Source of the DNA: a virus
Direction: 5' to 3' (one strand)
DNA length: 14,310 nt
UHGV virus genome: UHGV-1656152
Below, one piece after another: positions 12,001 through 14,310 of this stretch (position 1 is its first letter; each line of letters begins with the position of its first letter). A program made the position numbers.

Positions 12001-14310
12001 GAAACTGGTGAAACCATTCGCGAAGTTGTCGAGCGCCCTGTGCCGATGGCAATGATGGCGGATCGCTACTTCACCACCAAAAAGGACGGCAAAACTTACT
12101 ACATTAAACTTCATGATCCGCGCCTGATGCGTGCGATGAAGAACATGGGGCCGGAAACCAGTAACGCCGTAATCCGTACGCTGGGGAAAGTTAACCGCTT
12201 CCTGGCAACGGTGAACACGTCGTATAACCCGGAATTTCTGGTCAGTAACTTCATCCGTGACGTGCAGACTGCGGTGATGAACCTGAAGGCTGAGCAGGGA
12301 AGGAGCGACGGTAAACTGAAAGAGCTGGATAACTTATCCGCGCTGGCTGTGGTGAAAGACAGCCGTTCCGCCATGTCAGCCGTATACGCAAGTCTGCGGG
12401 GTAAAACCCTCACGGGCAAAGGCGCACAGTGGCAGAAAGTGTGGAAAGAGTTTGTTGAGGACGGAGGTAAAACCGGCTGGTTTAACATGGGTGACCTTGA
12501 GGGCCAGCAGAAGGAAATGGATCGCCTTGTGTCGCTGGCGAAGGGCGGATGGAAAGGCCAGAGTATCGGTGCATGGCATTCGTTCCTGAACCTGGTCGAG
12601 GATGCCAACGGCGCGGTTGAAAACGCTCTGCGTCTTTCTGCCTATAAACACGCCCGTGATGCCGGTTTGTCACGCCAGCAGGCGGCGTCTCTTGCCAAAA
12701 ACATGACGGTGAACTTTAACCGTCGTGGTGAGCAGGGGATGCTGATGAACTCGCTGTACATGTTTGCCAACGCCAGCATTCAGGGGACCGCAAACCTGGT
12801 GAGAACGCTCGGACATCTTAATGGCGACGGGCCGTTACTGGAGCGCCTTCGCTGGAAGAATCTCAATGTACCGCAGAAAATCGTGCTTGCAGCTGTGGGA
12901 GCGGGTTATCTGCTTGGCTCGCTTAACCGCAGTGTGGCGGGTTAACTGGTACGACAAAGTACCGTCTCATGTGAAAGAGCGTAACCTCGTCATCATGAAA
13001 TCGATGTTCGGGGGCAAGGCCGGTGAGTACTGGAGTATTCCTCTGCCTTACGGGTACAACGTGTTCTTCCTGCTTGGTCATACAGCTGAAGGTGTGGCAG
13101 CGGGCGACCTGACTGCTTCACGTGCTGCCGGTAATGTTGTCGGCGGTATCCTGGGGGCATTCAGCCCGATCGGCAGCGAGACGTCGGAAACGTTGTCGGG
13201 GGCATTGCTGAAAAATGCAGCACCGACAATTCTGCGTCCGTTTGCGAATCTTGCCATGAACGAAAACTTCATGGGGGCGCAGATTTACCAGGAGAACATG
13301 CCGTTTGGTACACCAAAACCTGACAGCCAGCTGGGAAGACGTTCAACGCCAGAAGCGTACAAGGCGTTTGCATTCTGGCTGAATGCGTTCTCAGGTGGCA
13401 GCCAGTATCGTCCCGGCGCGGTGGATATCACACCGGAATCGCTGAAATTCTGGATTGACTATATCTCCGGAGGGACAGGGCGCTTCATTTCCAAAACCAC
13501 GGATGCGGCGGTGAAATCGCTGAATGGTATTGATATACCGGAACAGCAGGTGCCCTTCCTGGGGAAAATTTCGGGTGAGGTGATGCCGTATGCAGACCAG
13601 CAGAAGATGTACGACCGGATGACAGAGGTTGCGCAGTATCACGCAGAGCTGAAGAGTCTGACCGGTGCAGAAAGAACGGCGTTCATTGACGAGAACAACG
13701 GAAAATTGTTGATGAACGGGCTTATGCAGGATACCCGGAAGAGACTGAAGGATTTGCGCAAACAGCGCGATGCCATTTATGCCGACAGTTCTCTCAGTCT
13801 GGCGCAGCAGGCGGCGATGGTGAAATCGGTAGAGCGGGATATGAAGGTTGCCGTGGATCGGTTTAACCGCGAGTACAACAAAAAAGTGGGAGTGGATTAA
13901 CAGAAATGGCCCCGTACGGAAGTGCGGGGCTGATTAAGAAATAAACACACATTAACCTGTAATAACCGGAGCTATTAACATATAGTCAGAAAGAGTATTT
14001 CATGTGAGACAGAGAGCCGATTTATGTTTAATGAAGAAAAAGTTGCGCAAATGGCAGCGTATTTGCTGAAAAAGCATGGCGGATCTATGCGTTTCATTAA
14101 GCTGATGAAGCTGATGTATCTCTCTGACCGCAAAGCAATGGAGTCTTTAACCGGGAAGGGGAGAGGTTTGAATGCTCCCCCACAATTCCCCGGCATCAAA
14201 TCTCCATGCAGGTGAACTATTTTACCCCCAGCGGCAAAATCGCAAAAACAATCAGTGCGATCGAAATGGCAGCCACTACAATTGCAAATGCTTCAGGCTA
14301 GGTCATTGGC

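Follow-up and report, generated by a model that had tools for sequence, protein, structure and literature searches.

The window analysed here is a 14,310-nucleotide (nt) stretch of UHGV virus genome UHGV-1656152 and forms part of a 933W-like (Stx-type, short-tailed lambdoid) E. coli prophage. Near its right edge, between the 3' end (at 13900) of a giant gene encoding LPD5 and LPD38 domains and the convergent end of the early-left operon, lies a short open reading frame (ORF) that begins like the Panacea antitoxin gene panA. Panacea antitoxins are encoded next to a toxin, PanT. We are highly confident that ordinary prophage decay of a type II PanA-PanT module left this ORF as a non-functional remnant, and that it is neither a working nor an unusual gene. 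The features of the locus are as follows:

14024-14215, + strand: panA-remnant ORF with an ATG start, 63 amino acids (aa), and a TGA stop at 14213-14215
14024-14144, + strand: surviving panA 5' end, codons 1-40 and the first base of codon 41, delimited by DNA alignment, hidden Markov model (HMM) and tblastn
14099-14116, + strand: tandem 9-bp unit AAGCTGATG (Lys-Leu-Met) in two copies, from allele alignment
14145-14215, + strand: non-PanA tail, codons 41-63 and stop, lacking any PanA or PanT HMM signal

Sequence homology of the ORF

A first-pass annotation, made from the sequence of the window, had described an ORF that stops after 63 codons and whose first 40 or so residues look Panacea-like, and had proposed a truncated Panacea/GepA-type antitoxin gene. 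The extent of the ORF was confirmed, and database searches bore out the homology. In a tblastn search of 2.3 Gb, the N-terminus of a 186-aa protein from Yersinia phage YeP3 shared 72.5% identity with residues 1-40 (E 2e-5), and residues 1-39 were 69% identical to a 190-aa protein of phage Lys8385Vzw. Both of these proteins match the profile PF13274 SocA_Panacea (E 8e-21 and 2e-19, respectively). The 63-aa peptide also matched phrog_1281 over residues 1-41 (E 1.1e-4), a family that the full-length 186-aa PanA matches from end to end. Against a PanA subfamily HMM of 184 positions, made from 113 full-length homologues, residues 1-41 aligned to positions 1-41 with a score of 70 bits. The consensus start of the family reads MFNExKVAQMAAYLLxKRGGRMxxLKLMKLLYLADR. 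Judged from these alignments, the N-terminal similarity of the peptide to Panacea proteins is well beyond chance. The HMM, phrog_1281 and tblastn matches, together with the colinear DNA described below, indicate descent from bona fide PanA proteins, the ORF holding the start of a 184-186-aa PF13274 antitoxin.

The peptide itself gave no match to PF13274 or any other Pfam profile (E <= 10), nor to NCBIfam or PADLOC. In full-length homologues the PF13274 domain begins at residue 27, and the stump keeps about 15 of the 113 profile positions. The silence of these databases is uninformative because too little of the domain is left. The first-pass annotation had offered the lack of a profile hit as grounds for rejecting its proposal. 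For Pfam this is formally the outcome, but the subfamily profiles (phrog_1281 and the PanA HMM) do match the peptide, and a Pfam-only test is therefore too blunt. In RefSeq the identical 63-aa protein is labelled 'hypothetical protein' (WP_000481379.1).

The length of the ORF varies with its internal repeat. One copy of AAGCTGATG is present in PhiR5_2, E. coli EC2 and Shigella phage 75/02, two in the window and three in strain cM8a, and copy numbers of one, two and three correspond to products of 60, 63 and 66 aa. Since intact relatives read KLMKLL at this position, two units represent the ancestral length. The 66-aa variant is named 'Panacea domain-containing protein' by PGAP.

The junction and the DNA beyond it

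Up to T14144, with which codon 41 begins, the DNA of the window and the near-full-length panA alleles of PhiR5_2 and E. coli EC2 are 98-99% identical. Past this base the window and the PhiR5_2-type allele are unrelated in register, and about 145 panA codons are missing from the window in every frame. Six-frame translations of 13901-14310 scored negatively against the PanA and PanT HMMs everywhere outside the 41 residues, in agreement with the earlier statement that no continuation is found in any frame. The frameshift that had been suspected finds no place here: homology to full-length alleles stops abruptly after T14144, pointing to a deletion or replacement junction instead.

The segment 14143-14225 was found in 43 of 5,426 complete E. 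coli genomes, O104:H4 included, always as the same allele and inside the same ORF. Among phages, the tail DNA is restricted to Shigella phages 75/02 and POCJ13. Neither phages nor complete E. coli genomes yielded a donor in which the tail adjoins another gene. As the tail is confined to one allele, the junction is a single inherited event. The first-pass annotation had left a choice between decay and an unusual short form; of the two, decay is upheld, since residues 42-63 are encoded by DNA of one allele and match no PanA or PanT profile, and the short form is not.

Between the tail and the intergenic DNA that follows the PhiR5_2 allele there is a weak yet significant similarity, with a local score of 31 against 15.6 +/- 1.9 (maximum 23) for shuffled controls. 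Two colinear 10-mers, TTCCCCGGC and TCCATGCAGG, tie the tail to this downstream region. This likeness fits a deletion from codon 41 to just past the cassette. An imperfect palindrome at about 14151-14193 was considered as a terminator or structured element and rejected, its folding energy being like that of shuffles (z -0.71) with no terminator call.

To the right of the stump, the window reaches the end of one further gene:

14303-14310, - strand: last codons and TGA stop (14303-14305) of a DUF551-domain gene, from the RefSeq annotation of NZ_AP045820.1

Over 13850-14310 the window matches NZ_AP045820.1 (strain 23CRST047) at 100% identity; against prophages of O104:H4 and other strains the identity is 99.6-99.8%, and against Shigella phages 75/02 Stx and POCJ13 it is 97.4-97.6%. 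The DUF551 gene, whose body lies past the window edge, ends the early-left operon and is convergent to the stump. It is followed in NZ_AP045820.1 by ordinary lambdoid early-left genes up to ynfF, and no Panacea or MazF-like gene is annotated by RefSeq over this distance. The proposal that a partner gene lies just beyond the window thus fails, the next gene being DUF551; no conserved toxin gene adjoins the stump within about 100 nt. The right-hand neighbours vary by allele: DUF551 in the window, IbrB/IbrA in PhiR5_2, and a YgiW-like gene with hokW in 933W.

Intact relatives encode a putative antitoxin-toxin pair

PanA-PanT systems were described by Kurata et al. 2022 (PMC8832971). In their cluster T6, the toxin carries the HHpred label EndoA/PemK/MazF-family, and the antitoxin gene comes first and overlaps the toxin gene (PMC8832971). 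The relatives of the window's stump have the same antitoxin-first, two-gene arrangement. The nearest intact pair found is in an E. coli P2-like prophage (L010 5974-6944), between a Phage_GPA replication gene and the portal gene. It comprises a 186-aa PanA, identical to the window stump at 33 of 41 residues, and, 8 nt further on, a 133-aa ORF starting MSFTPYRRGT. In this prophage the toxin gene and the first nine PanA codons had been overlooked by the gene caller. The same pair is present in YeP3, Lys8385Vzw, enterotoxigenic E. coli (ETEC) H10407 and three further loci (L011, L013 and L014), metagenomic prophage contigs among them. The two genes usually overlap by 4 nt, as in YeP3 and Lys8385Vzw.

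This pairing is conserved. Of 46 genome loci with a homologue of the partner, 45 have a PanA ORF immediately upstream, which is on the same strand in 44; the single locus without an upstream PanA ends at a contig boundary. The 46 loci span Proteobacteria, Chlorobiaceae, Bryobacteraceae, Planctomycetota and Gemmatimonadota, and the partner family has 729 representatives at E <= 1e-3. The model of the PanT partner (predicted local distance difference test, pLDDT, 97) has the MazF/Kid fold, and thus the EndoA/PemK/MazF fold of the T6 toxins, as recognised by structure comparison. By sequence, the intact PanT partner has no Pfam match, PemK included, and its profile gave a chance match alone (E 0.54) among PDB sequences. 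Neither intact PanA nor intact PanT is matched by PADLOC or NCBIfam, which places the PanAT module outside these catalogues. The presence of a MazF-fold partner directly downstream in intact relatives supports the first-pass suggestion that the stump is a toxin-antitoxin remnant.

The pair of ETEC H10407 (L063 2501-3489) is a T6-type panAT, diverged but intact, and many E. coli strains carry such a pair on a chromosomal island close to zur. Among 40 records sampled from the 341 that match, 20 carried a Panacea-annotated match of about 100 nt of this type. The annotated toxin of ETEC H10407 starts at an internal Val, 30 nt past the panA stop, and this points to either a lesion at the junction or a wrongly called start.

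Three decay states at one locus

In 933W-like prophages, the same panA 5' end directly follows the LPD gene in three states: the PhiR5_2 type, that of 933W, and that of the window. The first about 120 nt of panA survive in about 425 of the 5,426 complete E. coli genomes, where the gene is broken in no fewer than three ways. The PhiR5_2 type, present in PhiR5_2 and 18 complete E. coli genomes, retains a near-complete panA. In this allele codon 9 is TAA and Met10 offers an in-frame restart; one KLM unit is left, the other being missing where the Panacea domain starts, and panT is cut to the first six codons (MMFSPY). In RefSeq the product is a 174-aa 'Panacea domain-containing protein' (4675-5226 in PhiR5_2, L005, and 1536-2087 in L007). 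This toxin-less PanA may be a decaying orphan antitoxin. Elsewhere the PhiR5_2-type locus is interrupted by IS1 (H118) or IS3 (L008).

In 933W, an out-of-frame fusion of panA codons 1-27 with the last about 25 codons has given an unannotated 31-codon relic (L002 5175-5270). The gene L0135 of 933W (L002 5334-5522) encodes a 62-aa 'hypothetical protein' that starts MMFTPYRRGT. Residues 19-42 of L0135 are 54% identical to PanT residues 94-117 (E 1e-6), and PanT matches phrog_1925, the L0135 family, with E 6.5e-10. By these alignments, L0135 is an internally deleted PanT of the predicted MazF fold, that is, a toxin relic. The window type keeps 40-41 panA codons and nothing further of the module.

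Because 933W and PhiR5_2 each keep pieces that the other lacks, an intact pair must have decayed independently at least twice, which is evidence for an intact ancestor at the locus. The toxin core is lost in all three states, and in one of them the antitoxin outlives the toxin. This series fits loss of the toxin either first or simultaneously.

Remaining functional potential of the stump

A model of a full-length PanA homologue (P0006, pLDDT 92.9) has secondary-structure elements out to residue 184, in a fold of about eight helices and several strands. The region that corresponds to the stump comprises helix 4-18, strand 21-23 and helix 24-42, and the stump stops right after this second helix. 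The compact PanA fold consists of helices 1-7 and strands 1-2 (PMC10440598); the stump, with two helices and one short strand, falls short of it. In a stand-alone PanA examined by Ernits et al. 2023 (PMC10440598), the neutralisation-abolishing substitutions Y56A and H120E both lie past residue 41. One third of the 63-aa peptide is read from DNA without PanA or PanT signal, and a promoter scan of 13800-14310 found no sigma-70-like promoter. The loss of the fold, the lack of an adjacent toxin and the scan result suggest that the stump is most likely inert.

Interpretation and alternative explanations

We propose that panAT was once an accessory cassette of a 933W-like lambdoid prophage, lying between the giant LPD-domain gene and the point where the early-left operon ends. 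The ancestral module would have encoded a stand-alone Panacea antitoxin of about 185 aa and, in an overlapping gene, a MazF/Kid-fold toxin of about 133 aa. By analogy with the validated T6 member, the toxin was presumably a ribonuclease (RNase) that blocked translation and was neutralised by direct binding of the antitoxin. A single deletion, or an illegitimate phage-mosaic recombination, would then have joined panA codon 40/41 to intergenic DNA and taken away the other 78% of panA and all of panT. Read-through of the junction would add 22 unrelated codons before a stop, leaving a stump without a toxin to neutralise.

Several points weigh against this interpretation or parts of it. The toxicity of the window's PanT subgroup is extrapolated from one T6 member. 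No intact panAT was found at the exact locus in 933W-like phages or complete E. coli genomes: tblastn with PanT gave nine phage records, none of them Stx-converting or 933W-type, and blastn of the L010 pair against the 5,426 complete genomes returned no site covering at least 80%. As no extant intact pair was found there, the ancestral state at the locus is a reconstruction from three partial relics, and the relics of 933W and PhiR5_2 make an intact pair at that exact position probable on sequence grounds. To the right of the junction, similarity to the DNA downstream of PhiR5_2 is weak, and the divergence far exceeds that on the left side. Finally, the ORF is open in all 43 genomes and its repeat varies in frame alone (60, 63 and 66 aa), and the 63-aa peptide may retain a residual role.

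The weak match on the right side leaves an in-situ deletion indistinguishable from mosaic recombination. According to the latter explanation, illegitimate recombination linked a late-region arm, with the LPD gene and the panA 5' end, to a different early-left arm of DUF551 type, and the cassette was lost through module exchange between phages, not erosion, with the same dead stump as the result. The sharp change at 14144, from 98-99% identity with PhiR5_2 and EC2 on the left to DNA that is loosely alignable with indels on the right, would be expected of such a joint, as would right-hand neighbours that differ among alleles. The first about 100 nt of panA, 77-80% conserved between otherwise diverged E. 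coli panA genes, could have favoured recombination. However, TTCCCCGGC, TCCATGCAGG and the significant local alignment are what a deletion in a PhiR5_2-like ancestor would leave, and a donor with the tail beside another gene did not come to light. We regard a mosaic joint as possible, though doubtful.

Alternatively, the 63-aa product could be a functional short form, for example a micro-protein that interferes with the PanA-PanT of the host or of a rival phage. The uninterrupted ORF in 43 complete genomes and two Shigella phages, the in-frame changes in repeat number and the PGAP name of the 66-aa variant would agree with this, and diverged intact T6-type panAT in other E. coli chromosomes, such as that of ETEC H10407, could provide a target. 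However, all copies derive from one junction event, so that their persistence amounts to recent common ancestry, and a 9-bp unit can change in frame alone. The peptide retains two helices of a globular fold, a third of it is without PanA or PanT signal, and a promoter was not detected. The 933W lineage, moreover, broke the same gene by another route. We consider a functional short form very unlikely. Less credible still, to the point of deserving hardly any weight, is a frameshifted panA with the remainder of PanA or the toxin in another frame or just past the right edge. The truncated look of the ORF at the window edge speaks for it and nothing more, whereas the other frames of 13901-14310 are negative against both HMMs, and beyond the edge the convergent DUF551 gene and the early-left genes to ynfF include nothing annotated as Panacea or MazF-like.

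Together, these results identify the stump as routine erosion of an already known toxin-antitoxin family. It is conceivable, at long odds, that the conserved 120 nt or so of panA serve as a recombination handle for cassette swaps, or that the stump or the toxin-less PhiR5_2-type PanA modulates a resident T6 PanAT. If such modulation were true, it would be a phage counter-measure against toxin-antitoxin-based defence, for instance against the chromosomal pair of the ETEC H10407 type. The value of the present result lies in annotation, and it opens no new biological question. The entry WP_000481379.1, shared by two Shigella Stx phages and the O104:H4 outbreak lineage, should be relabelled as a fragment of a panA pseudogene. 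Decay of one PanA-PanT (MazF-fold) cassette can account for L0135 (phrog_1925) as well as phrog_3658 and phrog_28947, all of them relics, and the three states form a small natural series of toxin-antitoxin cassette erosion in prophages.

Other lesions and genes in the prophage

A second broken ORF lies between the stump and the DUF551 gene:

14217-14306, - strand: decayed small hydrophobic ORF, whose ATG overlaps the DUF551 stop (ATGA)

It carries an amber codon at codon 3 (14298-14300) and an extra A in the run 14236-14239 that shifts its last codons. The amber codon is common to cM8a and 75/02; the extra A is not. Intact 27-aa counterparts, so far unannotated, are found in 933W (MTWPEAFANVGTVMAVVLVVYSICRWR) and Stx2a_1447 (MTWPDAFAIVGVAMSIALIVFAICRWG), where each likewise overlaps the stop of the gene upstream. 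They follow the pattern MTWP[ED]AFA...CRW[RG], with a DNA similarity to the window of 74-87%. The 27-aa ORF may encode a conserved small membrane protein at the early-left operon end of Stx phages. We considered the ORF in the window as a Hok-type or type I toxin and rejected this, as it is homologous to the 27-aa early-left-coupled ORF, not to hok, and is broken here.

The prophage is decaying elsewhere too. At about 6697-6701 the window has a 2.9-kb gap relative to strain 23CRST047 (L015 3906-6805). Missing with it are two complete genes, a portion of another and about 1.1 kb from the start of the giant LPD-domain gene. A 161-bp probe over the gap junction was covered to at least 80% in none of the 5,426 complete E. 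coli genomes. At 12938/12939 a 17-nt deletion (GGTGAGGATGATGACGG in the reference) frameshifts the LPD-domain gene into ORFs 6727-12945 and 12821-13900. The undeleted form is present in all eight complete genomes listed, and most of the 426 matching records lie in the same identity band. Going by the corresponding genes that RefSeq annotates in L015, the late region carries an Ail/Lom outer-membrane protein gene (4100-4837, + strand) and a Hok/Gef family toxin gene (about 5070-5210, + strand).

Comparison with known systems

The founding member of PF13274 is SocA of Caulobacter crescentus, and the window's full-length homologues share its domain. SocA is a ClpXP adaptor that hands the toxin SocB over for degradation, and SocB is an inhibitor of DnaN. 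In contrast, the partner of the window's relatives has a MazF fold, and SocB falls in cluster T10 (PMC8832971). The PanT partner family differs in turn from the MazF, Kid and PemK endoribonucleases, with which it shares 6-13% sequence identity, and has conserved residues of its own (H20, D55, C58, H65, S72 and Y76).

The panA relic and L0135 of 933W (phrog_1925, phrog_28947) occupy the same locus, stem from the same ancestral module and are 100% identical to the window over panA codons 1-27. The lesion is different: 933W keeps the last about 25 panA codons out of frame and a 62-aa, core-deleted PanT, whereas the window keeps 41 panA codons and no PanT.

Among described toxin-antitoxin systems, the closest is T6, which has one experimentally validated member (PMC8832971). 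This pair of Pseudomonas moraviensis (PanA WP_083354365.1, PanT WP_083201923.1) passed a toxicity-neutralisation assay, its PanA and PanT formed a complex in a pull-down, and its toxin was treated as a putative RNase among the translation-inhibiting representatives (PMC8832971). From this member we infer that the lost PanT would have been toxic and directly neutralised by PanA. Three of the pairs in our collection (L020, L047 and L054) stem from strains listed under T6 in Dataset S1 of PMC8832971, namely Photorhabdus namnaonensis PB45.5, Rodentibacter pneumotropicus DSM 21403 and Rodentibacter genomosp. 2 ppn422, a match by strain listing. The restored N-terminus of the P. moraviensis PanA, MIFSEQKVAQ (PMC8832971), resembles the MFNEEKVAQ of the window, in keeping with one PanA subfamily for the surviving 41 residues and that protein, and the window's relatives, like T6, have a stand-alone Panacea antitoxin first and then an overlapping MazF-fold partner of about 133 aa. 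The difference is that the window holds 22% of the antitoxin and no toxin, making the stump a pseudogene of the family and not a working member. We are fairly confident that the lost module would have been a T6-type PanAT.

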